The position numbers were made by a program, and so were the translations under genes. From an uncultured Chloroflexia bacterium (GTDB lineage: Bacteria; Chloroflexota; Anaerolineae; Anaerolineales; Anaerolineaceae), in NCBI GenBank assembly GCA_963831305.1, contig CAWHPL010000001.1, forward strand, positions 175,352-239,351: a stretch of 64,000 nt of DNA, in the 5' to 3' direction. Below, in pieces: positions 7,975-59,178 of this stretch. The first letter of the stretch is position 1. The number at the start of each line of letters is the position of its first letter. Below the pieces are notes generated by a model. That model did not search any database, had not been told where the DNA came from, and worked only from the letters and a program-made list of their open reading frames with translations.

Positions 7975-8066
7975 AAACCGAGAGGCGAAAAGCGAGAGGC
8001 GAGAGGCGAAAACCGAGAGGCGAAATACGAAAGACGAAAAGCGAGAGACGAGAGCCGAAAATACGG
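7975..8066. repeat. degenerate tandem repeat, about 14-nt unit cgagaggcgaaaa(c/g), almost T-free on the plus strand
   Basis: Read directly: cgagaggcgaaaag cgagaggcgagaggcgaaaac cgagaggcgaaata cgaaagacgaaaag cgagagacgagagccgaaaata. Confidence 0.8.
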
Positions 8067-8412
8067 AGATAAGTTGTTAAGGTTCAAGTTGGTTGCTGAT
8101 CTGCCCGGCAGACGAAAGATGATTCGTTTATTGGAATTGATGCCGGGAATAAAAAGAATCAATTCGAATAAATCAAATGCTGGCCCACAGTGGCACAGAG
8201 CACACAGGGAGAGCCAGACTGAAAAAGGACTTCCGTAATGGCGCAAAGCGTATAAGGGCAGGAGGAGTCGTTTGGATTTAAAAAGCGGGAACGAATAATA
8301 CGAATGCGTTTGCGCGATGGGGAGAGCGGGGATGTGCGATTGAGTACCATGACGCTATTATTGCATAAATGGGGGCGTGATGGGACTACCCAAATCGGCG
8401 AATTTTAAGCTA

Positions 8413-8457
8413 AAAACTTGCCAATTTGGCAAGTTTTGGGAGAATTTGGCAAGTTTT
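8413..8457. promoter_or_regulatory. operator-like site: 12-nt inverted repeat plus a third direct copy
   Basis: aaaacttgccaa-t-ttggcaagtttt (8413-8437) is a 25-bp palindrome. The 15-mer aatttggcaagtttt recurs at 8423-8437 and 8443-8457, 20 bp apart. Confidence 0.5.
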
Positions 8458-8907
8458 ACTAAAAAGAAAATGGCATAATTGAAAAAAACAGAATCCAGAA
8501 CTAAAATCATTTAGAAAGGGAAACCGAAGGAAATAATACAAAAATCAATGAATTATCACCAATAGGAATCGATTTTCGAAGGTTGATTTAGCGCTAGGAA
8601 AATAACTGAAATATTCTGTTTATTATGCGTCGCGATGCACCCTACTAACTGGAAATTTGGAAAACTCAAATTTTGTTGGGTAAGCTGCAGGATAATAACT
8701 TTAGAAAAATATCCAAAAAACTGAAATTAAAAATTGTTATTAATTTGATAAAAGGTTAAGTTTTATAAAATTAGTAATATACTAATAATATAATTGATAT
8801 TACATGTGGCTAATTGCATTTCATAGAATTTCAGAGCTAAAAGTGTATAATAGTTATTTTCTGGTTGGGATATTTGTTATGCTTTAATTTTTGAAGGGGC
8901 GGTAAAT

Positions 8908-10428
8908 ATGAAATCTATATGCATATCCAATTTACGATCACTTCTCAATACTGGCGACATTGAACTTAAACCAGTAACTTTGTTAGTAGGAAGAAATAAC
9001 TCTGGAAAAAGTACATTTCTAAGATCCCTTCCATTATTGAGACAAAGTTACGAGAGTATTTCAACTGGTCCATTATTATGGTTCGGAAAATATGTTGATT
9101 TTGGCAGTTTTAATGTGGCTGTAAATAAATATGCTGAGGTTGACCCAATTATATTAAAATTTTCATTTAACCTTGAAGATTTAGATTTAGTGCCATTTAT
9201 AATAAATGAAAATAAGGTCTATGAAGTTAGTGTTATTATAACAATTTCTCGTTTGAAAAATGATGCATTTACAAAACAAATAGAGCTAATTATTTCTGAG
9301 CATATAATTAAAATGGTTTTTAATCAAAACCATACTATTGAATATTTAAAGGTTAATGAACATGAATTTCATGAGGGGTTTGAACAATTTTTATGGTCAT
9401 TATCAAGTGGACCAATTCCTGGAATTCGAGAAAAAAAAGAACGCAACGGAGAGAAAAATAGTTTCTTTCGATATTCAATGGACGATTTTAATATAGTATC
9501 AACAAGGTTATGGGGGAATTCCAGAAAAAGAGTTTCTCTAGGTCCATTATTTGAACTAACAGAAATTGAAATTGCCAAAAAATCAGAGATGATTAAGGAG
9601 CTTCAAAAAACGAAAAAAAGGAAATATGTTCAAAAAATGATGGGAAAGGATGAGCTATCCGACCTAGATTTTAGTGAAGCAGTTGACTTATTAATTGCCG
9701 ACAAGTCAAGACAAATATTAAGTCTGTGTAATGATTACTTATCTGTATTTTTTAAAAATGTAAAATATATAGCTCCAATTAGAGCGGCTTATCGTTATTA
9801 CCGATATCAAAACCTTTCTGTGGATGAAGTAGACTCAGAAGGACACAACCTTGCTATATACTTAAGGAATCTTAAAGAAAATAAATTAGAACCAGAATTT
9901 AGGAAATGGACACAGGAGTTTTTTGGTTTTCAACCAAAACTAAAAGAATACCAAGGTTTTTCCTCAATTCTAATTGAACAAGATAATTCAACAATAAATA
10001 TGGCAGATATGGGATTTGGATATTCACAAATGCTACCAATTATCACACAAGTATGGCAGGCTATTCATAATAAAAATCAAAAAACACGCAAAAATGCACC
10101 ACCAATTACTATAGCGATTGAACAACCGGAGCTGCATTTGCACCCACAGTTACAGGCAGACATTACGAAAGCATTATTAAGCATAGTCCAAACAGCAAAT
10201 AATGAAAACCGAAATGTAAAATTAATAATAGAAACCCACAGTGACATAATAGTGAATAAGATAGGAGAATTGATTTCAAAACGTTTGGTAAATAATGAAC
10301 TTGTAAATGTCTTGGTTTTTGAAAAAGGGCACAATGATAAAGTGTCAAGAATTACTGAAGCTTATTTTGATGATAACGGTTTATTACAAAAGTGGCCATT
10401 TGGATTTTTTGAACCTGATCCTGAATAA
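8908..10428 (+). CDS. ABC/OLD-type AAA ATPase (AAA_15/21 with DUF3696-like C-terminus), AriA/AbiLi-like
   Basis: 506 aa: Walker A GRNNSGKST, MGFGYSQMLPI, Walker B IAIEQPELHLHP, H-loop IIETHSD, tail KWPFGFFEP. AT-rich codon usage. Confidence 0.8.
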   Translation: MKSICISNLRSLLNTGDIELKPVTLLVGRNNSGKSTFLRSLPLLRQSYESISTGPLLWFGKYVDFGSFNVAVNKYAEVDPIILKFSFNLEDLDLVPFIINENKVYEVSVIITISRLKNDAFTKQIELIISEHIIKMVFNQNHTIEYLKVNEHEFHEGFEQFLWSLSSGPIPGIREKKERNGEKNSFFRYSMDDFNIVSTRLWGNSRKRVSLGPLFELTEIEIAKKSEMIKELQKTKKRKYVQKMMGKDELSDLDFSEAVDLLIADKSRQILSLCNDYLSVFFKNVKYIAPIRAAYRYYRYQNLSVDEVDSEGHNLAIYLRNLKENKLEPEFRKWTQEFFGFQPKLKEYQGFSSILIEQDNSTINMADMGFGYSQMLPIITQVWQAIHNKNQKTRKNAPPITIAIEQPELHLHPQLQADITKALLSIVQTANNENRNVKLIIETHSDIIVNKIGELISKRLVNNELVNVLVFEKGHNDKVSRITEAYFDDNGLLQKWPFGFFEPDPE

Positions 10429-10450
10429 CATCGATTAATGGGGAAAAAAT

Positions 10451-11554
10451 ATGATTTTTTACATTGATGATACATTAGTGTTAGATTTAGAAACAAACAA
10501 GCAACGTGACCAAAATGTAAAAGCAATTGAAAGCGTAATTACATCACAAATTCAGCTTAATCACTTTTTCTACTCTTCGAGGCAAAATCTTTTGAAGATG
10601 ATAGAAATTCCTGAGTTGAATGAAAGAATGCGAACTGAGGTAATTAGAGCTTATAACAGATTTTCTCAAAACGGATTTCTATATCAAATTCCAACAAGAA
10701 TTGAATTGATTTCAGGGCTAAACACTAAAAATATTACAAGAAATAATCATAGTATGGTAATTAGAATATCAACAGATTTATTTAATCAGTCGAAGTTTTG
10801 TGAAAGACCGATTTTCTTAACCGAAAATACTAATGATGGAAGAATATATAAGCAAATGGTTAATTACTATTTGCAAACAAGAAAATTACATAATATTATA
10901 AAAGCAGAATTTAAATTGGAAAATGGTGGGGGAAGTGTAACAGCAAACCAGTTGCGTTTCATTAGCAATGAAGGCGTAGATATTTGCTTTTGTATACTCG
11001 ATTCAGATAAATCTTTTCCAACAGATCGGATAGGTGAAACTTTAAAGGAGGCTTATAATGCGCTTAAACAGAATCAAGACTTTGGGTGTTGTTTAATAAT
11101 GGCTTTACAAGCAAGAGAATTAGAAAACTTATTACCTATTGGGTTATTACATAAACTATCAATCAGCAACGCTCAGTCAAAAGAGTTTATTTCTACGTTG
11201 GGTAATTTATCAACAGATGGAAAAAGATATGTGGATGTCAAATGTGGAATTTATGCGAAAAATTTTTGTTTGTCAACAAACACGAAGTTGCGGGATTTTT
11301 GGTTAGCCGAATTCAATTCTATTTATGATTGCGGGTTTAATAGTGGAGAATGTCTTCAAATCAGTTGTAAAGAAATACCTGGATTAGGTAAACATATAGT
11401 GCGAAATTTAATTGACAAATATGATAATACAGAAGGGTGGAAAATGATATTTGGTATTGTTGACAACGATCCATTTTGTAAAGCAGAATGGATTAAAATA
11501 GGAAATGAAATTTTCGAATGGTTTTGTAGTCCAATTTCGGTTAAGAACACATGA
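10451..11554 (+). CDS. Toprim/DUF4435-like putative nuclease partner (AriB/AbiLii-like) with extra N-terminal and Cys-rich C-terminal regions
   Basis: 367 aa, starting 22 nt after the ATPase gene. Ordered motifs FLTENTNDG, ENGGGS, ILDSDK (DxD), ARELENLLP. Confidence 0.6.
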   Translation: MIFYIDDTLVLDLETNKQRDQNVKAIESVITSQIQLNHFFYSSRQNLLKMIEIPELNERMRTEVIRAYNRFSQNGFLYQIPTRIELISGLNTKNITRNNHSMVIRISTDLFNQSKFCERPIFLTENTNDGRIYKQMVNYYLQTRKLHNIIKAEFKLENGGGSVTANQLRFISNEGVDICFCILDSDKSFPTDRIGETLKEAYNALKQNQDFGCCLIMALQARELENLLPIGLLHKLSISNAQSKEFISTLGNLSTDGKRYVDVKCGIYAKNFCLSTNTKLRDFWLAEFNSIYDCGFNSGECLQISCKEIPGLGKHIVRNLIDKYDNTEGWKMIFGIVDNDPFCKAEWIKIGNEIFEWFCSPISVKNT

Positions 11555-11580
11555 TTATTTTTGATTGCAATTTATTTGGT

Positions 11581-12643
11581 TTATATCAAGATACATATAT
11601 CTGACAAAGGTCTTAACAGATTTTGATTTTCATAAAAACCTTGGATTTCACTAGGTAGATGAGAAAAAGTAAAATCTCTAGTATTTGTTCTAGTAGAACG
11701 AAATATTATACTTTCAGCTCTTCGGCGTGATTTATACCGAATCAAATCTTCTATGATTGGCCAAGCAGCCTTGGCTTCAATTCTCATTTGTGTAAATGGA
11801 TTATTATATTTTTTAATTAAAGAACAAGCTAGAAGCCAATATTCATCATCTGGGTTGCTGTCAGACAACACTTTGGATAATGGCGGTAGGAATAATTGTG
11901 TGATCGATCCTATCAATAAAATCTGATAATTTCTCTATCCCTGATGGCAAAATTGTATTCTCGATCCACGAATCTTTGTACTGTTTATAAAGGAATTGTC
12001 CATTAACCTCATTGTATACTTCAATTTCAGGAGAGGTAAATATGGAAGATCCTGCAAAAAACAAAACAGCTTTGCCAAGGTTATGTTTATTTATTCCTTC
12101 GAAATATTCACCATTCCACATAGGTGCGAGAAGTTTTCCGTAAATTGGTTTGTTTTGAATTTTTGCATCAACCTCATCTATTAATACTAATGGTAATTTT
12201 CCATTCAAGTTTTCGGACTGAATTTTTCGAAAAAGATCGTCTAGATTTTTTATAGTCTTGAAAGCTGAAATTTGGAATTCTAGAAAAGAAGAATCAATAT
12301 TATTAGATTGGAGATCCGTTGCCAATTCATTGATTAAAAAGGATTTTCCACTTCCTGAAAATGCACCAATCAAAATGTTGAGTGGCCGTTTTTGCTTTCT
12401 ATAAGAAGTTGTTTGATAATTAATAATTTCGTTTTTAATTACTTGTATATTGTCACGAAACCCATCATTACAAGAAATAAATCTGCCAGCAATAGGTGTG
12501 TAAAGCATAGATATTTCGGAGGTTTTTTGATCATTTTTTAAATCCACAATACGCTTCAAAACATCAAATTTTGCCGATGCAATATACTCTTGTGAATTCT
12601 TTTTTTGTAAAACATGCAAACTCGTTTTAAACCCCTTTCCCAA
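11581..12643 (-). pseudogene. orphan AAA+ ATPase, apparently split by a frameshift near 11875-11900 (or ATPase plus an overlapping 111-aa ORF)
   Basis: ORF 11861-12643 has Walker A GAFSGSGKSF, Walker B PLVLIDEVD, LLAPMWNGEY and DFIDRIDHTIIP. ORF 11581-11916 continues in another frame from a TTG with PPLSKVLSD... The two overlap by 56 nt. Confidence 0.55.
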
Positions 12644-12677
12644 GATTACAGACTAAAATTTTCTCACATGAATTGTA

Positions 12678-15278
12678 TTAGCATTCACTATACCCGCAGG
12701 AGTAGCATTTGCGGCAGCCTTCTTCGTTGATGACGGCGGCGACGCCGCATTCAGGGCAGAGGTCGCCAATGGCGGCGGGGTTGGCTGCGGGCTGGGAATC
12801 CTCTTCAATCGTGGCTATCTTGAATTGCGGGGTGCCATCTGCGTCAAGAAGCGAGGGTTGTTTTTCTTCAGCACCGGACAGGGCTTTGCCGAGGCGGATG
12901 GCGCGTTCATCCAGGTATTCCTGCAGCACCTGGGCAACGCCGTCAGGAAGTGAGCGAACACGGTTGGGTCCAAACCCGAGTGAGCGCCCGCCGCCGATGC
13001 CGCCAAGCTGGCGCTGCACATCAGTGAGGCGCTGGGTGGGTTCGATGGGTGAGGAGAGGCGCAAGACGTAAGAGATGAGGCGCCCGATGGCTTCACTAAC
13101 CGCGGCGGTATCGGAGCCGGCTTTGGCAGTGTTGAGGAAAATCTCAAAAGGCTGCTCGGAACTGTTTTCATTGATGGTAATGAAAGCCTTGCCAAGCGGG
13201 GTCTCGATGGAATAGGTCTGACCCAGCAGGGCACGCGGGCGCGGTTTCTTGGTCTCCTGCCAGATCTTGATCTGTTCGTCTGACACTGATTCTTCATCTG
13301 ATTTGCGCGAGGCGGTGCCGTGGGTTTCGAGAACCACCTGATCGCGTGAACCGGTGACGTACACGGTGATGCCTTTGCAATTCATTTCCCAGGCGGTTAC
13401 ATAGGCGCTGGCAACATCTTCAACAGTGGCATTTTCAGAGAAATTGATGGTCTTTGAGAGGGAATTATCCACAAACGCCTGGAGGGCAGCCTGGGTGCGC
13501 ACATGCTCTTCAGCGGAGATATCGGCGCTGACCACGAAAACTTCTTTGAGGTTGGCGGGGACGTTTTCGATATTCTGGCAAGACCCATCACTCATCACCT
13601 TGTCGATGATATCCTGCCGATCCAACTCACTGATGCCGGCTTCGATGAGCGCCTGCTCGAACATGGGGCTGGTGTAGGTGAGCTTGAGATCCTTGCCATT
13701 GTCGTTGACATGGCGAATGTAGGCTAACGCGAAGACAGGCTCACAGCCGTACCCTTCACAGCCGGCGACGGTGGCAATGGTGCCGGTGGGGGCAACGGTG
13801 GTTTGAGCGGCGTTGCGAATACCGTAGCGTTTGATGCCTTCGACGATGCTCTGCCAATCGAGATTCGGACGATTCCAGTATTGTTGATTTTCAAATGGAG
13901 AGGCGGGCGGCTGCCAGATGAGGTGGCTGGGGTCGTAAATGCTGCCGCTAATGGCTGGAAATGCGCCTCTTTCGTGGGCGAGTTCAATGCTGGTCTGCAT
14001 GGAAATGAAGCGGATAAACTCCATTACCTGCGCGCCAAAATCTTCACCGGAGGGAGACCCATAGCGAACGCCGACGTGATACATCAGGTCAGACAAGCCC
14101 ATCACGCCCAGACCAATGCGGCGGGCACGCAAGGCGGATTCCTTAAGTTTGGGCACAGCCGGCACATACGCGTTGGCATCGATCACATCATCCAGGAAAC
14201 GGGTGGAGAGACGGGTATTTTCACGCAGCTTTTCCCAATCCACTGAGTGGGCAGGTCCGAGATGCTGCGCCAGGTTAATCGAACCGAGGCAGCAGTTTTC
14301 GTAAGGTCCAAGCCATTGCTCACCGCAGGGATTGGTGGCTTCAAGCTGGTAGAGGTGCGGAACGGGGTTTGAGCGGTTGGCGGCGTCGAGGAAAAGCAAT
14401 CCGGGTTCGCCGTTGTGGTGCGCCTGCTTGACGATCTTTTCAAATAGGTCGCGGGCGCGAACGGTTTTATAGGTTCTAAACGGAATCCCCTGGGCTTCTG
14501 CCTGCTCAAAAGTTCCCTTAAAGCCTTTGCAGCGTGGATCAAGCAAATCGGGGAAGCGCAGCGGCCATTCGCGATCTTCTGCAACCGCGGTCATAAAGTC
14601 ATCGGTGATGCCGACAGAAATATTAAAATTGGTGATCTGATTTTCGTTGGTTTTGCAAGTGATGAAATCTTCGATATCCGGATGGTCGATGCGCAAGACA
14701 GCCATGTTGGCACCACGGCGGGTGCCGCCCTGGGCGACTTCACCAAAGGCGTTGTCGTATACGCGGAGGAAACCCACGGGACCGGTGGCTTGACCGGCGG
14801 ATGTTTTGACGATGCTTCCTTTGGGACGCAGGCGAGAGAACGAAAAACCATTACCCCCGCCGGTTTGCTGGATCAAGGCGGCATCGCGCAAGGTCTGGAA
14901 AATACCGGAGGAGTCTTTGCCCATATCGTCATCAATGGGGAGCACAAAACAAGCTGCCAACTGCCCGAGCGGCGTGCCAGCGCCGGTGAAGGTGGGGGAG
15001 TTGGGAAAGAACGCCTTGGAGGTGAGGAGCGTATAGTATTTTTTCGCCAGGCTGGTTACATCGGTGGACCACTTTTCTTCAACCAGGGCGATGTTATAGG
15101 CAACGCGCCAGAACATTTCTTCGACTGTTTCAGCCGGTTGTCCATCGGTTCCACGCCTGACATAGCGTTTGATCAATACCTGGCGGGCATTGTCTGTCAA
15201 CTCAATTTTGGGCAGATCCTTGGGCATTCCTGCCACATCCAATAAGGACCGTTGTGACGTGTTGGCAATAGTATCCAT
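12678..15278 (-). CDS. nrdJ: class II (adenosylcobalamin-dependent) ribonucleotide reductase
   Basis: 866 aa: NPCGEQ active-site motif, TVAPTGT, a C-terminal CPECG...[12 protein letters not shown] zinc ribbon, and nrdR immediately upstream. Confidence 0.9.
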
Positions 15279-15292
15279 CGGGTTTTGAACTC

Positions 15293-15742
15293 CTAATTAT
15301 CTAATAGTCTGTCAATCTCTTTGCGGATGGAAACGAGGTCACTTAATTGAAGGTAAACGATCGCATAGCGGATATAGGCAATATGGTCCAGTTGCTTAAG
15401 CCCTTCGATGACGATGTCCCCCACAATTCTGGATGATACTTCTTCCCTTCCCATTTGTTGAAGTCTGGTCTCAATTTCACTTACCAGGTGATTGATCTCG
15501 GCTGCCGAAACAGGGCGCTTAGTGCAAGAGAGGCGGATACCCTGAAGGAGTTTTTCGCGATCAAATTCTTCGCGGGCACCGGATCGCTTAACAATTAGAG
15601 GGGTAGCCAGGATTGGTCTTTCGTAGGTGGAAAACCGTTGATTGCATTTTTCACATTCCCGGCGTCTTCGAATGCCGCCACGGTTATCATGAGTGGTGTC
15701 GAGCACTCTGGAGTTTTCATCCTGGCAATAGGGACAGCGCAA
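15293..15742 (-). CDS. nrdR: transcriptional repressor NrdR
   Basis: MRCPYCQ...[17 protein letters not shown] zinc ribbon plus an ATP-cone. Confidence 0.95.
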
Positions 15743-16131: not shown

Positions 16132-16572
16132 TTAAGGATAGATATGCCCACAATTGTTAAATGTATCATCACCGGGTCCACCTATACAAACATCATCGCC
16201 ATTGCCCCCTTTGATGGTGTCATCGCCTCCACCGCCTACTATGCAATCAGTTCCCTTTTTCCCGCTGATCGTCTCACCGTCTTCAGTACCGAGGATTAAA
16301 TCATCGCCTTGGGAGCCGTTGCAGGTATTCCCACCAGAACAAACTACAATGTTGGTTAATACAATCCCGGCACATTCCGGTGGTTTAAGATCATTCTCGC
16401 CGGCAGAATGGGTTGAACTTCCGACCCTGGAAGAACCAACCAGATTGGCAGCGCTGAAAGCAGACGAGGTGAGAAAAATGACCATGCCTATGAAAATGAT
16501 CACGGTCATTATCAGCACCACTTTGAACAATTTATTCCGTAATAACATTTTTACCTTTTCTTTAATGTTCAT
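16132..16572 (-). CDS. small secreted Ca-binding (RTX-like GGxGxD repeat) protein with a SipW-cognate-like signal peptide
   Basis: 146 aa with an N-terminal TM, then SAFSAANLVGSSRVG, then GGGGDDTIKGGNGDDVCIGGPGDDTF. ATGA overlap with the peptidase gene. Confidence 0.7.
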   Translation of the reverse strand: MNIKEKVKMLLRNKLFKVVLIMTVIIFIGMVIFLTSSAFSAANLVGSSRVGSSTHSAGENDLKPPECAGIVLTNIVVCSGGNTCNGSQGDDLILGTEDGETISGKKGTDCIVGGGGDDTIKGGNGDDVCIGGPGDDTFNNCGHIYP

Positions 16573-18218
16573 AATACATTATTCTTAAGAATATCGACAT
16601 CGTTAAAATCACAAATATAGGTAACCCCATTTGCTTCAACGTAATAAGCGTGTTGCCCGTTGCCCTCGTAGTGCAGGATCACAGTCCCCGCCTTTTCGGA
16701 AAGCCTGGCGAGATCGTCAATCTGTGAAAGTTTTACCGTGGTGCGTTGGTTCAACAATGGTGGGGTATCGGTATTGATGAGTGAGCCGCCGTATTTCAAT
16801 TTGACCATCAACCCTTTGTCTTTCTTTGAGACTTTTGAAATTTGATTAAAAATCAGCCAAAGTCCTGCCAATGAAAAGAGAAGGCATAGCGCGGAGATCA
16901 ATCTAGCCGTGGTTACTTTCAGGTTGAATGAAAAAAGGTGAATAATGTTTGGAGCAATTTGCCGGGAGGATTGAACGCTGTCAGTTGATTGATTTAATGG
17001 ATCAACGTCCAGGTCTTCATGGGTCACATAAACACGGGTTTCATCTATTTGAAAGGGTAGGGCGGAATTGAAAGGTGCGGAGAATTGGGTTCCGCTGATT
17101 AATCCTGTTTGCAGCACATTTGGTTCAATAAAAATATTGTAAAGGTAGGAGGTGGATCCGGTCTGTTCTTCCATTGCCGTGATGGCTGCTCTTAACTGGC
17201 AAAAATTAATCACGACCTGGCTAGAAAACGAATCACCGGTAAAAACTTGTTCGGTTTCAAGTGGAAAATTGCGTTTCCAACCGCTTAATGGTTCAGAGAT
17301 CACTGCTTCCAAGTGATGGGTACCGGTTAATCCTTCAAGAACTGAGCCGGCGATCTGGTAAGTTGCGATCAGATTGATCTGGCAAGTGAGGTTAGTGAAA
17401 ATCGGGTCGCCAGAGGTTAATGATTTTGAATTGTAAACCCCCAAAGGTGCCGAGGCATTATATTCATATTTGATGGATTGGGAATATGGAAAATCAGGAT
17501 TGGTGACTTTGGTCACGGGTTTTAGAAAGCTGATCAGGAATAGGATTAACGAAGCCAGGGCAATAATTCCAAGTAGGAAGATACCAAGTTCGACATAAAC
17601 ATTTAGGAATGAAGAGCCAGAATTTGGTTTGTTCTTGTTTGAATCTGAATCAGGAAGATTCGAGGGGGGGATTGAGTCATAACCAACTGAAAATGAGGAG
17701 CCATCATGACTCTCAATAACGGGAGGTGAAATAACTCCCTTTTTCTTTTTTTTCGTAAATAAACCAAATCCCATAATCGTACCTCCGAATATTCCAGCAA
17801 AGAGTGAAGCGTTGAGCGGTTGTTTTAACCATGCGACGGACTTCCCCGCACCAGGAATAAAAAGCCATTCTTTGCCGAGAATTTCACTTGCTGAAGGTTG
17901 ATAAGAATCAACCCAATCGTTGTTGTCTCCCTGCATGATGTAGTGCAGTGAGTTGCCATCTACAATACGGTGGAAGACAATTCTGTTAATTTCCGAATTT
18001 TGATATGCAACTGCATCGCCGATTTGATATTCATCGTATTTTCGAACCAAAATGAGGTCATTTTGATGAACCCGCGGTTCCATGCTGTTGCCAGTGATGA
18101 TGATAAATTCGACCCGCCCCCCCAGTTTTATGGGAGCAAAAAGCAGCCAGACTATAAGAGCGGCAACGATCAAAAAACTTGATAAAAAAGTTAAAGTCCA
18201 GCGGGATTTTCCCATCAT
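16569..18218 (-). CDS. SipW/Sec11-type (S26B) signal peptidase I fused to a large multi-TM C-terminal domain
   Basis: GNSMEP (Ser), FHRIV (His) and QGDNNDWVD boxes are followed by 3 further TM segments, a ~220-aa ectodomain and a cytosolic tail. Start uncertain: ATG-ATG at 18218 versus TTG at 18275. Confidence 0.75.
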   Translation of the reverse strand: MMGKSRWTLTFLSSFLIVAALIVWLLFAPIKLGGRVEFIIITGNSMEPRVHQNDLILVRKYDEYQIGDAVAYQNSEINRIVFHRIVDGNSLHYIMQGDNNDWVDSYQPSASEILGKEWLFIPGAGKSVAWLKQPLNASLFAGIFGGTIMGFGLFTKKKKKGVISPPVIESHDGSSFSVGYDSIPPSNLPDSDSNKNKPNSGSSFLNVYVELGIFLLGIIALASLILFLISFLKPVTKVTNPDFPYSQSIKYEYNASAPLGVYNSKSLTSGDPIFTNLTCQINLIATYQIAGSVLEGLTGTHHLEAVISEPLSGWKRNFPLETEQVFTGDSFSSQVVINFCQLRAAITAMEEQTGSTSYLYNIFIEPNVLQTGLISGTQFSAPFNSALPFQIDETRVYVTHEDLDVDPLNQSTDSVQSSRQIAPNIIHLFSFNLKVTTARLISALCLLFSLAGLWLIFNQISKVSKKDKGLMVKLKYGGSLINTDTPPLLNQRTTVKLSQIDDLARLSEKAGTVILHYEGNGQHAYYVEANGVTYICDFNDVDILKNNVL

Positions 18219-18336
18219 AATTATTATCTTACTATAATCCAGACCATCCACTGGAATCGAGTCTCGTCGTTCCAATAAGATGGCCTGGGATCATCCGTGA
18301 TTACCAGAGGTAGTACTGGTAAATATTTGACAATGG

Positions 18337-18693
18337 CTAGTTGGATGCAACAACCTGAAGGGTGGCGGCACTTAATACTGTCGTTCCAGAAATATTGCAA
18401 GACCAGGTGGATCCAGTTAGTGTACAAGCAGGACTCCAGGTAGCGCCAACTTTAGCTCTAACTGCTGTTGCAGGTGAGTTAAGTTCGAATGTAACTGCAT
18501 CAATGGTGGACGGGGTGGTTGTGTTCAATACATAATGAATATTGGTGACATCGTATCCAGTGATCGCGCCACTGCCATCGCCAGCTTTGGAGGGGTCAAC
18601 AACATTTGCAGCAGCAAAAGCAAAAGTGAACCCAGACAGGGCAAGAACCATAACAACAAGCATCAGAACCTTCATACTCTTTTTATATAACAT
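18337..18693 (-). CDS. small secreted protein with a SipW-cognate-like signal peptide (possible fibre/pilin-like subunit)
   Basis: 118 aa: MKVLMLVVMVLALSGFTFAFAAANVVDPSKAGDGSGAITGY, then a beta-rich domain. AAGGAG RBS. Confidence 0.65.
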   Translation of the reverse strand: MLYKKSMKVLMLVVMVLALSGFTFAFAAANVVDPSKAGDGSGAITGYDVTNIHYVLNTTTPSTIDAVTFELNSPATAVRAKVGATWSPACTLTGSTWSCNISGTTVLSAATLQVVASN

Positions 18694-18920: not shown

Positions 18921-20126
18921 TTACTCGTCACGACCGTCCAGGTAATTGCGCAGGAAAGTCGGAATATTCAACATGTTGGAGTCAATTGTGGTTGGCTCAA
19001 AGGTAATTCCGGGTTCTCTGCTGGAGCCAACCATCACAGATTGCTGCAGAATAGGCTGTAGCACTCTGTTGCTGGATTCAACCTTGGTTGTTGGTGCGCT
19101 GATCACTTTTGGGGTGCCGGCCCGATCGAAACCGGTGGCGATCACGGTGATGCGCAGTTCTTCTCCCATGTTTTCATCAATTACTGCACCAAATATCATA
19201 TTGACATCCGGGTGGGCAGTTTCTTTAATGATTGCTGCTGCCTGGTTGACTTCATAAAGCGTCAGGCTTGGACCACCGGTGATGTTGAAGAGGATACCGC
19301 GTGCGCCATTGATGGTGACATCGAGAAGCTGATTGGAGATCGCCTGTTCGGCGGCTTTACTGGCGCGGTCATCACCACTGGCGCGACCCACTGCCATCAA
19401 AGCTGCTCCACCTTCGGACATGACTGCTTTTACATCTGCAAAGTCGAGGTTGACAAGTCCGGGAACCGTAATGACTTCAGAGATTCCCTGCATACCCTGA
19501 CGCAGAACATCATCAGCTGCCTTGAAAGACTCTTGAAGAGTCGCTTTTTTATCTGCCATTTGAAGCAAGCGATCGTTGGGGATAACGATCAAAGTATCAG
19601 TGTGCTCCTTGAGACGGGCAATGCCTTGCTCGGCTGCCTGGAGGCGTTTTTGCCCTTCAAAGGAGAAGGGGCGGGTGACCACACCGATGGTGAGGGCACC
19701 AACTTCACGGGCAATCTGGGCAACGATTGGCGCTGCACCGGTTCCGGTGCCACCGCCCATGCCTGCAGTTACAAAAACCATGTCACTGCCTTTGAGGGTT
19801 TCATATAACTCCTCAGAGGATTCTTCGGCTGATTTGCGCCCGGTCTCAGGATTGCCGCCTGCGCCCAACCCTTTGGTGGTTTGGTCGCCAATGCGAACTC
19901 TTATCTGAGCTTTGGAATTTACGAGTGCCTGTGCATCGGTGTTCACAGTAATGAACTCAATGCCCTGAACGCCTTCATCGATCATGCGATTGACGGCATT
20001 GCAACCACCGCCGCCAACGCCGATCACCTTGATCCGAGCGAAGGATTCAGCCAGCTGTTTGCTTTCGGGTTCAGATTGACGATTCCGAAAAGCGCTTTGG
20101 TTCTGATTGTTTCTGTTAGTCTCCAT
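18921..20126 (-). CDS. ftsZ: cell division protein FtsZ
   Basis: [20 protein letters not shown], and NLDFADV. Confidence 0.97.
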
Positions 20127-20179
20127 TGTATTCCTCCATTGTGTTGGTCTATATTATCCAGGAACAGCTTCCTGGTGGT

Positions 20180-21430
20180 CTACGGTAGCATTCTCTTGCC
20201 TAAATCCTTCAAAAACGCTTTCACTTCATTCCATCGTGGGGTGCGAATCCCCGGAAATGATGAGCGGGTTCGGGTGGTGGTTGAAGAGGTGGCATTCACC
20301 AATTCTGCCCATTTGAGCAGCCCGACGCTGGTCGAAAATGCCGGACTTTGTAACTGATCAACCAGCCCAATCAAATTTTCGGGTTTGGCGATGCGAACGG
20401 GCATGTTCAGAACACGGGTGGCTAAGGGGCGTATTCCAGCCATCAAGCTGGAGCCGCCGGTGAGAACCATGCCGGCAGGGAGCAGGCTATTCAGCCCAGA
20501 ACGATGAATCTCCTGCAAGACAAGTTGAAAGATCTCATCTACCCGGGCTTCGACGATCTGAGCGAGGTGCCTTCGGCTTACCTGAACAGGTGAATCTTCA
20601 CCAAAGGCGCGCAGGGTGAAGAACTCTTCTTCACTGACTTCACTCAATAAGGAATAGCCATATTGTTTCTTGACTTGTTCAGCCTGGTCAGGGTTGATAC
20701 GCATGACAACAGCGATGTCCTGAGTGATGTGATTGCCACCAACGGGAAGAACCATGGTGTGCCACACATCGCCATTCACATATATTCCGAGGTTGGTGGT
20801 TCCTCCACCGATATCGCAAACGCAAACACCCAAGTCACGTTCGGTTTTATTTAATACCACTTCACCAGCGGCCAAGGGGTTGAGCACAAATTGCGAAACA
20901 TCCACGCCAGCTGATTGGACACACTGACGTAAGTTTTCCATTGTAGCGGCGGCGGCGGTGATGATATGAGCTTCAACTTCCAAGCGATAGCCGGAGAAAC
21001 CAATCGGGGCTTGAATCCCTTCCTGACCATCTACTGAAAAACCGCGCTGAATGACATGAACGATCTCACGATTGTGCGGGATGGCGACAGCCTGCGCACC
21101 ATCGAGAGCGCGCCAAACGTCATCCTGGCTGATAACACCACCTGAGATGGCGACGACGCCACGGGAATTGATCCCCGAAACCTGCGAGCCGGCAAGGCTG
21201 ACGATGGCAGAGGTGATCTCGAGCCCCGAAGTCCGCTCAGCTTTTTCAATAGAGCGGGCGATCGATTGAGATGCAGCAGCAAGGTCAACGACTGCGCCAG
21301 ATTTGATCCCCTGGGAAGGTTCAATGCCAACGCCAAGGATCCGCTGGTCGCTTTCGCCTTCAAGGCGCGCCACAAGCGTGCAAATCTTGGTGCTTCCAAC
21401 ATCTATCCCGACAACAATTGGATCGCTCAT
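20180..21430 (-). CDS. ftsA: cell division protein FtsA
   Basis: Actin-fold protein: VGIDVGSTK, DIGGGTT, LTGGSS. Confidence 0.93.
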   Translation of the reverse strand: MSDPIVVGIDVGSTKICTLVARLEGESDQRILGVGIEPSQGIKSGAVVDLAAASQSIARSIEKAERTSGLEITSAIVSLAGSQVSGINSRGVVAISGGVISQDDVWRALDGAQAVAIPHNREIVHVIQRGFSVDGQEGIQAPIGFSGYRLEVEAHIITAAAATMENLRQCVQSAGVDVSQFVLNPLAAGEVVLNKTERDLGVCVCDIGGGTTNLGIYVNGDVWHTMVLPVGGNHITQDIAVVMRINPDQAEQVKKQYGYSLLSEVSEEEFFTLRAFGEDSPVQVSRRHLAQIVEARVDEIFQLVLQEIHRSGLNSLLPAGMVLTGGSSLMAGIRPLATRVLNMPVRIAKPENLIGLVDQLQSPAFSTSVGLLKWAELVNATSSTTTRTRSSFPGIRTPRWNEVKAFLKDLGKRMLP

Positions 21431-21439
21431 AAGATCCTC

Positions 21440-22507
21440 TTACTCCGTCCGATAATAAGGTGCATCAGCGTATTCGACGCTGATCGTAGTGGGTGTGATA
21501 CCAAGTTCAGACAGACGCTGAACAATAGCTTGATATTCAACCTGTTTGAACGCCATATTTTGCAAAGTTGAACCAAAGAAAACAGTCCAGCCGCGGGTAT
21601 CTTTCCAACCCATGCCGGAAACGGAATCGTAAACAAGCGCGGAACCTTCGGGCATCTGGGTGCTGAAATCAATTGCAGCTTTGATCACGGCGGAATCCAT
21701 GTGCTTGAGGGCTTCCTCGGGAGTAAGCTTTTTCTCCGCACGATCAAGTGCGATATTTAGATAATCGAGGGGATCGGAGGGAATGGGGGTGGTGCGAGTT
21801 AATGGCATGGGATCACTGGAATAAATGTAGAGAACTGTGCCGGAATCACCACGAGGAGGAAAGACCACTCCGTCAGAATCAACCCACAAGGTGGAATCGC
21901 CAGAGGTCCATGAGAGGATCGGTTGGCGTTCGACAACAGTGATTTTTATCCCAGATGGAAGAGACGTGCGCAGACTCTTGATGATTATTTCCGGGAACGC
22001 GAACGACAAAGCTTCAATGATCTCTTCGCGGTTCACCACGAAAATTGAACCACTATGTTCCTGGATCACCGGCGCAAGGTCTTCCGCTGTCAGGCGATTG
22101 AGTCCATCAACGCCGATTGAATTGACCTGAAAGACCGAGAGGTTGGTCAGTAATAATGCCACCGCAATGAAAACTACTGCGAGAATGCCAGATACCCACT
22201 GCCAATTGAAATGCATGGTGGGCAGGGTGAGCATGCGTGTTTCGACTCCATTAGAGGCAACCTTGTATTGCACTTTGCGCGGTGTGGCTGCTGTTTGTGG
22301 AATTGAACGCGATGTTGCAGAATACCGCGAAACAGGCACGGATTGATGGCGAATCGGTGGGGATACCGGGTGGCTAACAGGCTGCCATACATTGGAATTG
22401 ACCGGTTTCTCGCTTGGCTTGCTTTCAGGCATCTTTACCTGGCGGACCGGTTGGGAACGCCGCTGCCTTACGGCTTCAGAATGGGAGGTGGTTTTGTGCG
22501 AATTCAT
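21440..22507 (-). CDS. ftsQ: cell division protein FtsQ/DivIB with a long Pro/Ser-rich N-terminus
   Basis: Single TM, then POTRA-like VNSIGVDGLNRLTAEDL, in the position between ddl and ftsA. Confidence 0.75.
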   Translation of the reverse strand: MNSHKTTSHSEAVRQRRSQPVRQVKMPESKPSEKPVNSNVWQPVSHPVSPPIRHQSVPVSRYSATSRSIPQTAATPRKVQYKVASNGVETRMLTLPTMHFNWQWVSGILAVVFIAVALLLTNLSVFQVNSIGVDGLNRLTAEDLAPVIQEHSGSIFVVNREEIIEALSFAFPEIIIKSLRTSLPSGIKITVVERQPILSWTSGDSTLWVDSDGVVFPPRGDSGTVLYIYSSDPMPLTRTTPIPSDPLDYLNIALDRAEKKLTPEEALKHMDSAVIKAAIDFSTQMPEGSALVYDSVSGMGWKDTRGWTVFFGSTLQNMAFKQVEYQAIVQRLSELGITPTTISVEYADAPYYRTE

Positions 22508-23610
22508 TCTCCCCTCCTGAATGTGTGAATTGTGCGGCTTCGGTCAGATTTTCTTTCGAGGGCAAGATCGATCAATTTTTCAACCAGGTTTTCATAGGAA
22601 ATGCCCATTGCCTGTAGAAGCTTGGGATACATGCTAATTTTGGTAAACCCGGGTAGGGTGTTGATTTCACTTAGGAAGATCTCATTTGAGTCACGGTCGA
22701 GGAGAAAATCAACCCGAGCCATGCCGGCACCATCAACTGCCTTGAATGCGCGGATTGCGATCTCCTTGATGGAATCAGCTTCCGTTTCGGTCAGCTTAGC
22801 AGGAATAATCAGTTCGGAATCGTCATCAATGTACTTGGCATCATAGGTGTAAAAATCATCCGCGGGGCGAACTTCGCCGGGGATTGACGCCAGGATTTCA
22901 TCGTTTCCGAGCACACTGACTTCAATTTCACGCGCATTGATACCACGTTCCACCAGGATACGGCGATCATAGCGAGATGCTTCCAACAAGCCTTCGTAGA
23001 GATCAGAATGAGTTCTGCATTTTGTAATCCCGACGGAGGATCCAAGGTTGGCAGGTTTGACAAATATCGGGTAGGGGAGAGCTTTTTCAATATTTGCGAC
23101 AACCTCTTCGATTGAAGAGGTAATCTCAGCCCGGTTAATCAAAATGGATTCAGGAACCGGAATATGGTTAGCTCTCATGACATCCTTGAACAAGGATTTG
23201 TCCATGCCAACCGCGGAAGCGAGCACACCACAACCCACATACGCGACATCAGCGAGTTCAAATAATCCCTGGAGGGTACCATCTTCACCAAAAGTTCCAT
23301 GGGTGACAAGGAAGTAGACATCAATAGGGGATAGCGGTTGAATGGTTTCATCTTTGCGCAAGAATAATGAGTTCTTATGAGGCTCTGGTAGTAAGGTGAT
23401 CGGAGTGAGAGTGTCGAAGCGGTTGTTCTCAAAAGCTTCAATAACATTTACCCCGGTAAACCATAATCCTTCACGGGTAATGCCGATTTCAGTGACTTCA
23501 TAGTGATCACGGTTGAGGACGGAACGCACTGAACGGGCGCTCATGAGAGAGACCTCATGTTCACCTGAACGACCGCCAAAAACAAGCGCAAGTTTTTTCT
23601 TCAATGTCAT
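22504..23610 (-). CDS. ddl: D-alanine--D-alanine ligase
   Basis: ALVFGGRSGEHEVS, HGTFGEDGTLQG, EINTLPGFT. The ATG at 23610 forms an ATGA overlap with the murB stop. Confidence 0.93.
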   Translation of the reverse strand: MTLKKKLALVFGGRSGEHEVSLMSARSVRSVLNRDHYEVTEIGITREGLWFTGVNVIEAFENNRFDTLTPITLLPEPHKNSLFLRKDETIQPLSPIDVYFLVTHGTFGEDGTLQGLFELADVAYVGCGVLASAVGMDKSLFKDVMRANHIPVPESILINRAEITSSIEEVVANIEKALPYPIFVKPANLGSSVGITKCRTHSDLYEGLLEASRYDRRILVERGINAREIEVSVLGNDEILASIPGEVRPADDFYTYDAKYIDDDSELIIPAKLTETEADSIKEIAIRAFKAVDGAGMARVDFLLDRDSNEIFLSEINTLPGFTKISMYPKLLQAMGISYENLVEKLIDLALERKSDRSRTIHTFRRGE

Positions 23611-24527
23611 TTCGATACCTGCCAATTACCGAGTAATTCAATTTCTAATTCAAGCGATACGCCAAAATTTCCCACAACTTTTGCCTGGATCAAGCGGATC
23701 AACTGATAATAGTCTTCAGCATTGCCGGTGCCATCATTGACGAGGAAGTTGGCATGCACCGGGCTAACCTGCACACCACCGATCTGCGTGCCTTTTAGAC
23801 CTGCGGCTTCGATTAAACGACCAGCGTGGTCGCCAATGGGATTCTTGAAAGTTGAACCCGTACTGGCACCAACAGGTTGTGAGGCTTTGCGTTTGGCGAT
23901 ATTGTTTTCCATCATCGCATTGATCTCGTTAACATCACCTTTTTGAACTTTCAAATCTGCGGCAAGGATGATTGACTTGCCTGGATCGCGCTTGAGATAA
24001 CTTGAGCGATAGGAATACTGCATCTCCTCTGCGGAGAGTGCCTTATTGTCAAAAGTAGGGTGCACGATATATGCCATATCCAATGTTTTGCTCATATCGC
24101 TGCCAAATGCCCCGGCATTGCCATAAACAGCGCCTCCAAGCGACCCTGGCACGGCACATGCCCATTCCAACCCTGTAAAGGCATTGCGGGCGGCAAAACG
24201 CGAAACAGCGATGAAGGCTGCGCCGGTCTCGGCGTGGATGAGCGGTATTTCAGCGGTACCGGCGATTTCAATTTTATTGCAGCGGTTGTGAAGAACGAGA
24301 GTGTCGAGACCGTTGCTGCTGACGATGATATTGGCACCACCGCCAAGAACCATAAAAGGCACATTGTTTTCCCAACACCAGTGGATGTCTGATTTAAATA
24401 TCGCGAGGTCTTTTTCCTCAACAAAGTACCTGGCCATTCCGCCAACCTTGGAAGTGGTATGGCTGGACAGGCTGACATTCATCTGCAGCCTGTCTTTGAA
24501 ATGGGAGAGTACCAGTTGATGATCCAC
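23607..24527 (-). CDS. murB: UDP-N-acetylenolpyruvoylglucosamine reductase
   Basis: FAD-binding GGGANII, GSLGGAVYGNAGA, and GSTFKNP. Confidence 0.92.
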   Translation of the reverse strand: MDHQLVLSHFKDRLQMNVSLSSHTTSKVGGMARYFVEEKDLAIFKSDIHWCWENNVPFMVLGGGANIIVSSNGLDTLVLHNRCNKIEIAGTAEIPLIHAETGAAFIAVSRFAARNAFTGLEWACAVPGSLGGAVYGNAGAFGSDMSKTLDMAYIVHPTFDNKALSAEEMQYSYRSSYLKRDPGKSIILAADLKVQKGDVNEINAMMENNIAKRKASQPVGASTGSTFKNPIGDHAGRLIEAAGLKGTQIGGVQVSPVHANFLVNDGTGNAEDYYQLIRLIQAKVVGNFGVSLELEIELLGNWQVSK

Positions 24528-58912: not shown

Positions 58913-59178
58913 GTAAATGCCTTGATGGAAACGAGTAAGTTGCTGTGATGCTTAAAGCGAGCCCGGGTTGGTGGAAGCCGGGCAAGCAATTGCAACTGAA
59001 AATCCTTCCGGAGCTGCGACCCGAACACGGGAAACCGTTATTAAGCAAGCCGGATATTCAATCGTTACCTTGAAGCAGGTTTGTCCTTTTGGACGAACCC
59101 GACCAAGCGCTCACTCAATTGAGAAGCAGGGTGGTACCGCGGAATTTTTCCGCCCCTGACCAGGGGCGGTTTTTTTTT
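58913..59178 (+). promoter_or_regulatory. T-box riboswitch leader (Ile)
   Basis: Canonical T-box sequence GGGTGGTACCGCG at 59129-59141, immediately 5' of an intrinsic terminator. Upstream are AGTA, an AGCGA bulge-like element, a GC hairpin with a GGTGGAA loop, and GAAAATCC containing ATC. It lies directly upstream of ileS. Confidence 0.8.
59150..59178 (+). terminator. T-box attenuator terminator
   Basis: ccgcccctg(ac)caggggcgg followed by T9. Confidence 0.85.

Follow-up and report, generated by a model that had tools for sequence, protein, structure and literature searches.

Why should a bacterium encode a signal peptidase of the endoplasmic reticulum (ER)/archaeal type between two small exported proteins, and which substrates would such an enzyme serve? 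This question is raised by three co-directional minus-strand genes, A, B, and C, which are located between ftsZ (ending at position 18921) and nrdR (starting at 15742) in a 64,000-nucleotide stretch of contig CAWHPL010000001.1 of an uncultured Anaerolineaceae bacterium (Chloroflexota). This whole stretch is referred to as the window. Gene A (18693-18337, minus strand) encodes a protein of 118 amino acids (aa) with a signal peptide, the tag AAANVVDPSKAGDGSG, a seven-stranded immunoglobulin (Ig)-like sandwich, and two invariant Cys residues. Gene B (18275-16569, minus strand) is a 568-aa open reading frame (ORF) that starts from TTG and codes for an ER/archaeal-type signal peptidase I fused to DUF5305. 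Gene C (16572-16132, minus strand) encodes 146 aa with a hydrophobic N-terminal segment, the tag SAANLVGSSR, an NDLKPPECAGI element, and a Cys-rich RTX beta-roll; its reading frame overlaps that of B by four nucleotides (ATGA). Together, the three genes probably form a self-contained export-and-maturation cassette, in which B cleaves the tag of A and C and whose product serves adhesion or matrix formation.

The peptidase part of B carries the boxes ITGNSMEP, VFHRIV, and QGDNNDWVD. An earlier note on this DNA had already described these boxes (as GNSMEP, FHRIV, and GDNNDWVD), the three genes, their sizes, and the ATGA overlap, and all of them were found where it had placed them. The true start of B is probably the ATG at 18218, which would give a protein of 549 aa, because the homologue alignments open at MMGKSRW. 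In Pfam, B matches Peptidase_S24 (Peptidase_S24/S26, E 2e-6) and, with residues 333-554, DUF5305 (PF17231), where the alignment covers positions 1-216 of the 217-position profile and scores 47.4 bits against a cutoff of 29. In NCBIfam it matches TIGR02228 (sigpep_I_arch) with 60.1 bits (cutoff 51.85), whereas the SipW equivalog model NF046067 reaches 29 bits with a cutoff of 190 and thus stays below equivalog level. Since the archaeal model lies above its cutoff and the SipW model far below, B is, by these profiles, an ER/archaeal (Sec11)-type signal peptidase I that resembles MEROPS S26B, and orthology to SipW is excluded. The earlier note had spoken of a SipW-type enzyme; the Ser/His class shared by Sec11 and SipW holds, but the assignment to SipW itself does not. 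Among 47 homologues of B, H102, D117, and D123 never vary, and at least 90% of the sequences retain S64. Judged from this alignment, S64, H102, and Asp are the Ser/His/Asp set of Sec11-type enzymes, unlike the Ser/Lys pair.

An AlphaFold2 model of B (mean predicted local distance difference test score, pLDDT, 84.7) places a first transmembrane (TM) helix at residues 24-46, the peptidase at 55-140, a second TM helix at 153-173, and a disordered, Lys-rich cytosolic linker at 176-216. These are followed by TM3 (220-251), a beta-sandwich ectodomain of about 200 residues (255-453), TM4 (454-485), and a cytosolic alpha/beta domain (487-556), in agreement with the three additional TM segments, the ectodomain, and the cytosolic tail that had been read from the sequence before. 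The part from residue 220 to 556 fits the layout given for DUF5305 in a 2026 preprint on AbpX, namely a TM helix, an external beta-sandwich, a second TM helix, and a cytosolic alpha/beta domain. In Foldseek searches with the B model the top match in the PDB was human SEC11A (7p2p_A, E 3e-4), and SipA of S. pyogenes (4n31), a pilus-associated peptidase homologue, was matched as well. The ectodomain retrieved generic sandwiches of the ApaG/Af_0446 type, and no match between it and SPC22/23 was detectable in the Foldseek search.

The domain fused to the peptidase, which the earlier note had taken to be uncharacterised, turned out to be in print already. DUF5305 corresponds to TafG of the haloarchaeal Tat-fimbriae (Tafi), where deletion of tafD, the adjacent peptidase gene, blocks the processing of TafA (PMC11821415; PMC12337348), and bacterial peptidases with a fused DUF5305 are listed in the Tafi paper (PMC11821415). 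The 2026 AbpX preprint interprets DUF5305 as an accessory protein of type I signal peptidase (SPase I), supports this with the fusion protein E8MZY1 of Anaerolinea thermophila, and remarks on the likeness of SPase plus DUF5305 to the eukaryotic complex. The architecture of B is thus known in outline from the Tafi and AbpX literature of 2025-26. Neither of these sources discusses the neighbours of the SPase-DUF5305 fusion. The families of A and C, their common tag, and the degenerate EAL domains and HD-GYP domains on relatives of B, all described below, are apparently new.

The product of A reads FAFAAANVVDPSKAGDGSG and is preceded by a strong ribosome-binding site (AAGGAG). In an alignment with 43 homologues, positions A27, A28, N30, A37, G38, G40, G46, Y47, C90, and C99 are invariant. 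The family is characterised by two invariant Cys and by an invariant block, FAAANTVPxSKAGDGSGxISGY, directly behind the hydrophobic segment. No Pfam or NCBIfam model matches the window's protein or any of the 43 homologues, although the family is large: a profile search of 1.84 billion representative sequences recovered 1,903 clusters at E <=1e-3 and 1,143 at 1e-10, so that its size at 50% identity is 1,900 clusters or more. The structural model (pLDDT 84.8) shows a signal helix (residues 2-29), a low-confidence stretch (30-41), and a seven-stranded Ig-like sandwich of about 77 residues. Residues 30-41 are conserved yet unstructured in this monomer model, with pLDDT values of about 57-75.

The earlier note had suggested looking for a TasA-like beta-sandwich in the 118-aa protein, but the model departs from it. 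Hidden Markov models (HMMs) of camelysin/TasA (PF12389) and DUF1102 gave no match at E <=1 with the window's A or any of the 43 homologues. TIGR04088 and TIGR04089, which describe SipW-cognate signal peptides, likewise found nothing at E <=1 in the N-terminal regions of A and C and in the 43 homologues of A, with the proviso that HMMER filters may drop the weakest matches. Among the HMMs that the earlier note had named as checks, it is thus DUF5305 that found its target, in B. A Foldseek comparison of the A model with the PDB returned generic Ig domains only (best E 0.23) and no TasA, AbpA, or Tafi/TafE structure, and a PDB profile search with the A family yielded noise, led by an antibody chain at E 0.62. 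As neither HMMs nor fold comparison produced a match, A is not recognisable as a TasA-superfamily protein by the available profiles and the model.

Gene C, which reads SAFSAANLVGSSRVGSS, belongs to an unrelated family of proteins of 130-160 aa, for which 114 search matches were obtained. Its members share a long hydrophobic segment, the motif A-x-A-A-x-N-T-V-P-x-S, a conserved ITANDLKPPECAGI element, RTX repeats, and conserved Cys. The calcium-binding repeats noticed earlier are recognised by Pfam HemolysinCabind (PF00353; 33.8 bits against a gathering score of 23, E 3e-8) and are retained across 34 aligned homologues. NCBIfam models of RTX toxins match C weakly, in the repeats only, and far below the family cutoffs.

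A genome scan with 10 close B sequences as query, in which each species was represented by one genome, yielded 80 loci, or 81 including the window. Nearly all hosts are Chloroflexota (Anaerolineae and Anaerolineales, Caldilineaceae, and Thermomicrobiales); the loci beyond this phylum are from one member of the Rubrobacteraceae and one metagenome-assembled genome of the Actinomycetota. A lies upstream of B on the same strand in 75 of the 81 loci. Downstream of B, 74 loci have C, without exception on the same strand and usually with a 4-nt overlap or at most 40 nt away, and the order A-B-C is retained in about 75. Most absences of A or C fall at contig ends. The conservation of the cluster is therefore borne out, and the hosts agree with the earlier note, which had mentioned similar clusters in Chloroflexi and Actinobacteria. 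All-against-all clustering of the neighbouring ORFs revealed no other conserved neighbour, be it a sortase, a tip protein, a regulator, or a transporter, in more than 15 loci. About 10 loci contain two or three A paralogues. Tandem copies beside B occur in loci L006, L031, L032, L060, L066, L076, and L079 and resemble sets of major and minor subunits; in the Actinomycetota locus L079, two further genes of the A family follow C.

What connects the otherwise unrelated families of A and C is a single 12-residue tag, A-x-A-A-[AST]-N-T-V-P-x-[ST]-[KR], which is located immediately behind the hydrophobic segment in both. The motifs of the window, AANVVDPSK in A and AANLVGSSR in C, deviate slightly from the family consensus AANTVPxS[KR]; the common N-terminal motif that had been noticed in the window is a property of both families and above chance. 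A table of tag positions anchored on the Asn could accommodate 72 of 88 A proteins and 68 of 78 C proteins from the loci. Both families have Ala at -5, -3, and -2 and a small residue at -1, followed by N-T-V-P-x-[ST]-[KR]. The 100% Asn in this table arises by construction; in independent alignments, the Asn is invariant in A and replaced in 6 of 34 C sequences. Among 6,598 six-frame ORFs of the 81 loci, the strict tag occurs within the first 110 residues of 104, and 96 of these are A- or C-family proteins. We rejected the possibility that the window encodes a third substrate with this tag, as both other matches to the regular expression there are chance ORFs that lack a signal peptide. Following the -3/-1 rule, cleavage of A and C likely takes place at A-x-A / A-[AS]-N-T-V-P. 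The export of both proteins is of the Sec type, and no twin-arginine motif is present in them.

Further insight comes from natural fusions. The proteins P0263, P0284, and P0342 are single chains composed of the signal and tag, two A domains, a C-like RTX module, and a further A domain. P0263 and P0284 end with a second C-like module, which is absent in P0342, where the chain stops after the third A domain. P0263 is encoded between an A gene and a B gene (locus L081, 511-2109). Each of these proteins has a single, N-terminal copy of the tag, and its internal A domains open directly at their first strand. Since the internal domains do without it, the tag acts like a signal for processing or sorting and not like a structural part of each A domain. 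The fusions also provide Rosetta-stone evidence for a joint physical action of A and C.

The spacer between A and B contains a long RNA hairpin (18288-18239, minus strand; folding z -3.7), which is probably an attenuator or stabiliser of the A transcript. It is also present in six relatives, in three of them with a U-run. The best minimum free energy of a 60-nt segment after A is <=-20 kcal/mol in 92% of 71 loci compared to 32-38% of coding-region controls (Mann-Whitney p 2e-15). The conserved hairpin after A and the strong ribosome-binding site in front of it would fit a structural protein made in excess over the machinery that processes it, as is typical of the genes of major subunits.

A different kind of domain is found on many relatives of B. 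Most of its database homologues have a length of about 800 aa and carry a C-terminal EAL domain, and two carry HD-GYP. Across the loci, EAL (PF00563) is present in 31 of the 81 B proteins (for example in L001-L003, L006, and L011; further EAL-bearing relatives include P0002 and P0004-P0009) and HD-GYP in two (L031 and L078), whereas 48, namely the window and 47 others, have neither. In the HD-GYP forms among the database homologues, P0035 and P0045, the motif HHExxDGxGYP is intact. The EAL domains fused to B retain the EAL Glu and the Arg, Asn, Lys, and Gln, but their catalytic motifs are eroded: DDFG[TAS]G is found in none of the 31, E[LIVF]TE in three, and EG[VI]E in eight, and the full set does not occur. 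The catalytic residues of EAL domains are known from RocR and TBD1265, and such losses are the pattern of the non-catalytic cyclic di-GMP (c-di-GMP) receptors LapD and FimX. By analogy with these two receptors, the degenerate motifs suggest that the EAL domains of B relatives sense c-di-GMP rather than hydrolyze it. We found no published description of an SPase-EAL fusion, or of Anaerolineae adhesins in connection with c-di-GMP.

How might these parts work together? Sec would insert A and C, whose N-terminal hydrophobic segments would hold them in the membrane. B, a Ser64/His102/Asp Sec11-type enzyme with its DUF5305 accessory subunit in the same chain, would then recognise and cleave the private tag A-x-A / A-[AS]-N-T-V-P-x-[ST]-[KR]. 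Once cleaved, the abundant small Ig-like A and its partner C, a beta-roll that binds Ca2+, would be released to the cell surface, where the two may associate into an adhesive or matrix structure. The c-di-GMP-type domain that resides on the cytosolic side of B in about 40% of related species suggests that the cassette is part of biofilm and adhesion physiology. Precedent lends support to this scheme, as dedicated SPase I enzymes, with DUF5305 where it is present, process the subunits of surface filaments in other systems. We infer the identity of the cleaving enzyme (B rather than a housekeeping peptidase), the position of its cut, the binding of A to C, and the role of the product. The secretion and fibre or matrix module envisaged in the earlier note thus keeps its export signals, its shared tag, and its genetic linkage, but loses its TasA-like substrates, which neither HMMs nor fold comparison recovered.

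Several points weigh against the proposed cassette. The A-x-A site is canonical for SPase I, so a housekeeping enzyme of the LepB type could cleave A and C as well. The interaction of A with C, and any polymer made of them, is something we infer. The control used for the hairpin sets intergenic against coding sequence. A sigma-70-like promoter was sought upstream of gene A and none was found. Finally, the window's own B has no c-di-GMP-type domain, but ends at residue 568 where it overlaps C.

Should A and C then be regarded as ordinary secreted proteins that happen to be neighbours of a general signal peptidase? The site obeys the general A-x-A rule, and in the window the cassette lies among housekeeping genes (ftsZ and nrdR). 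Nevertheless, this view is very improbable, because order, strand, and the 4-nt coupling of B and C are kept in about 75 of 81 loci while other neighbours change, the tag is common to both flanking genes and almost absent elsewhere in the loci, and A-C fusions adjoin B. Still more remote is the idea that the private peptidase matures A and C as a pair of secreted toxins or bacteriocin-like proteins. Both are small, Cys-containing, exported proteins, one of them with RTX repeats as in some toxins, but the similarity to toxin families is confined to these repeats and far below the family cutoffs, the Ig-like sandwich is no known toxin module, and no immunity gene, transporter, or other conserved neighbour accompanies the loci. 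A closer relationship to the known fibre systems would exist if A were the major subunit of a TasA/AbpA/Tafi-like donor-strand fibre, polymerised via its N-terminal extension, with C in a TapA-like role as minor subunit, tip, or nucleator. SPase I and DUF5305 do accompany donor-strand fibres in archaea, a conserved yet unstructured stretch such as residues 30-41 of A is what a free donor strand would look like, the two or three A paralogues of about 10 loci could be major and minor pilins, the hairpin after A suits a major subunit, and the tandem A-A-C fusions resemble beads on a string. We consider this arrangement possible, but on balance unlikely. None of the 43 A members matches the camelysin/TasA, DUF1102, or TIGR04088/9 HMMs, the Foldseek search retrieved nothing of the TasA superfamily, and the sandwich of A is complete with roughly 77 residues, whereas the TasA jelly-roll is twice as large. 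Moreover, the alternation of hydrophobic residues seen in donor strands is missing from the extension NTVPxSKAGDGSG, which has a high content of Gly, Asp, and Pro, and the fusion proteins contain internal A domains that fold in its absence.

The c-di-GMP-type domains invite yet another interpretation, namely that B is a gated inside-out signalling protease, in effect LapD and LapG in one chain, in which a cytosolic nucleotide-sensing domain would control the external peptidase and thereby decide whether an Ig/RTX surface complex is kept in the membrane by its uncleaved signal-anchor or is released. In its favour, the EAL domains of 31 of the 81 B proteins keep the Glu, Arg, Asn, Lys, and Gln in combination with degenerate catalytic motifs, two more proteins bear HD-GYP, and C has a hydrophobic segment of sufficient length for an anchor and is, like LapA, an RTX protein. 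Gating of this kind, although attractive for the EAL-bearing relatives, is nonetheless doubtful and not directly applicable to the window, whose B lacks the domain, as do 47 others that have A and C all the same. In addition, some of the fused EAL domains retain more of the catalytic set, binding of c-di-GMP and loss of catalysis are deduced from sequence, and no literature precedent was found. One may speculate about an unrecognised surface filament or lattice built from A and C, widespread in Chloroflexota and Actinomycetota and unrelated in fold to TasA, in which Ig-like beads and a Ca2+-binding beta-roll partner assemble once a single-chain SPase-DUF5305 has licensed them by cleaving the tag. 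In about 40% of the species, this assembly would be wired to c-di-GMP through the degenerate EAL or the HD-GYP domain, which would make B a second-messenger-gated signal peptidase. In this full form the proposal is rather improbable.

Within the window, A, B, and C look like one transcription unit, as judged from terminator-like hairpins after ftsZ and downstream of C. The former (18837-18813, minus strand; a 9-bp stem with 6 GC pairs) parts the division cluster from the cassette, and the latter (15822-15807, minus strand), which lies 3' of C and 5' of nrdR and is followed by a T-run, is probably the end of the operon. No plausible ORF or Rfam element was found between C and nrdR. On the minus strand, the cassette is flanked by ddl-ftsQ-ftsA-ftsZ (18921-23625) and by nrdR with a class II ribonucleotide reductase (12678-15742). 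The setting between ftsZ and nrdR is common only to the four closest relatives (L001-L004), and a functional tie to cell division was rejected for this reason. Farther away, at 8000-12650, lies an island with a GC content of 0.32-0.33 compared to about 0.47 elsewhere in the window. It contains an AAA_15/DUF3696 ATPase (8908-10428) with PADLOC matches to NsnB (5e-48), PDC-M55A (5e-37), and AriA (6e-34), a 367-aa protein (10451-11554) that matches PDC-M55B (1e-7), and a divergently oriented AAA protein (11861-12643). This island is probably an acquired candidate anti-phage defence pair. A T-box leader (RF00230) at 58913-59160 on the plus strand scores 102.5 bits against a gathering score of 93 and is the sole Rfam match in the window; ARAGORN predicted no tRNA or tmRNA genes across the 64 kb.

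Dedicated signal peptidases for the subunits of biofilm fibres, such as SipW for TasA, TafD with TafG, and those of the AbpX loci, are coming into view as a system that bacteria and archaea have in common. The cassette represents a minimal three-gene form of it, and the fusion of DUF5305, the proposed accessory subunit, to the enzyme is in line with the view that peptidase and DUF5305 operate as one machine. Its substrates add two large unnamed families, the one of A lacking any Pfam or NCBIfam model, and a new class of cognate signal that annotation pipelines could recognise. In the form of filaments, Chloroflexota prevail in sludge flocs, sediments, and mats, while their surface and matrix proteins are almost unknown. 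Furthermore, the occurrence of a c-di-GMP-type domain on the signal peptidase of many relatives suggests a direct link from a second messenger to membrane protein maturation.

The closest parallel in genetic organisation is tapA-sipW-tasA of Bacillus subtilis, where a dedicated ER-type (Ser/His) signal peptidase is likewise encoded between two exported substrates in a group of three genes, the substrates have a private N-terminal signal in common, and the products serve the biofilm matrix. However, B contains DUF5305 and falls far short of the SipW equivalog cutoff, whereas SipW lacks this domain. Moreover, A and C are no homologues of TasA and TapA by HMM or fold, and the tag of the cassette is NTVPxS[KR] instead of a TIGR04088-type signal. 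With the Tafi system the cassette shares a dedicated SPase I (TafD) and a DUF5305 protein (TafG, consisting of a TM helix, a beta-sandwich, a second TM helix, and a cytosolic domain), but these are two proteins in Tafi and one polypeptide in B. The cassette also differs in its Sec-type export without a twin-arginine motif, in the lack of jelly-roll pilins like TafA and TafE, of the regulator TafB, and of tip proteins, and in having three genes in place of seven. The AbpX loci, too, combine SPase I with DUF5305 and involve calcium, and the bacterial ones neighbour c-di-GMP enzymes. Their SPase I has 10 TM helices, however, compared to four in the model of B, and while AbpX forms Ca2+-dependent donor-strand fibrils, the substrates of the cassette are an Ig-like mini-domain and an RTX protein outside the TasA superfamily. 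In the relatives of B, the c-di-GMP-type domain is located on the peptidase itself. The resemblance to LapD-LapG-LapA, with its degenerate cytosolic EAL domain, its external protease, and its RTX substrate that is cleaved N-terminally at a site containing Ala-Ala, is by analogy only. Homology is lacking, as LapG is a Cys protease and LapD a HAMP-GGDEF-EAL protein, and the most important difference is that the B of the window has no EAL domain. Finally, the eukaryotic signal peptidase complex (SEC11A/C, SPC22/23, SPC25, and SPC12) provides in SEC11A the best structural match of B, and it also has a beta-sandwich accessory module beside the protease, on the lumenal side that corresponds to the cell exterior in B. 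The eukaryotic complex is a general enzyme of four subunits, whereas B unites peptidase and accessory module in one chain and appears to be dedicated to its substrates.

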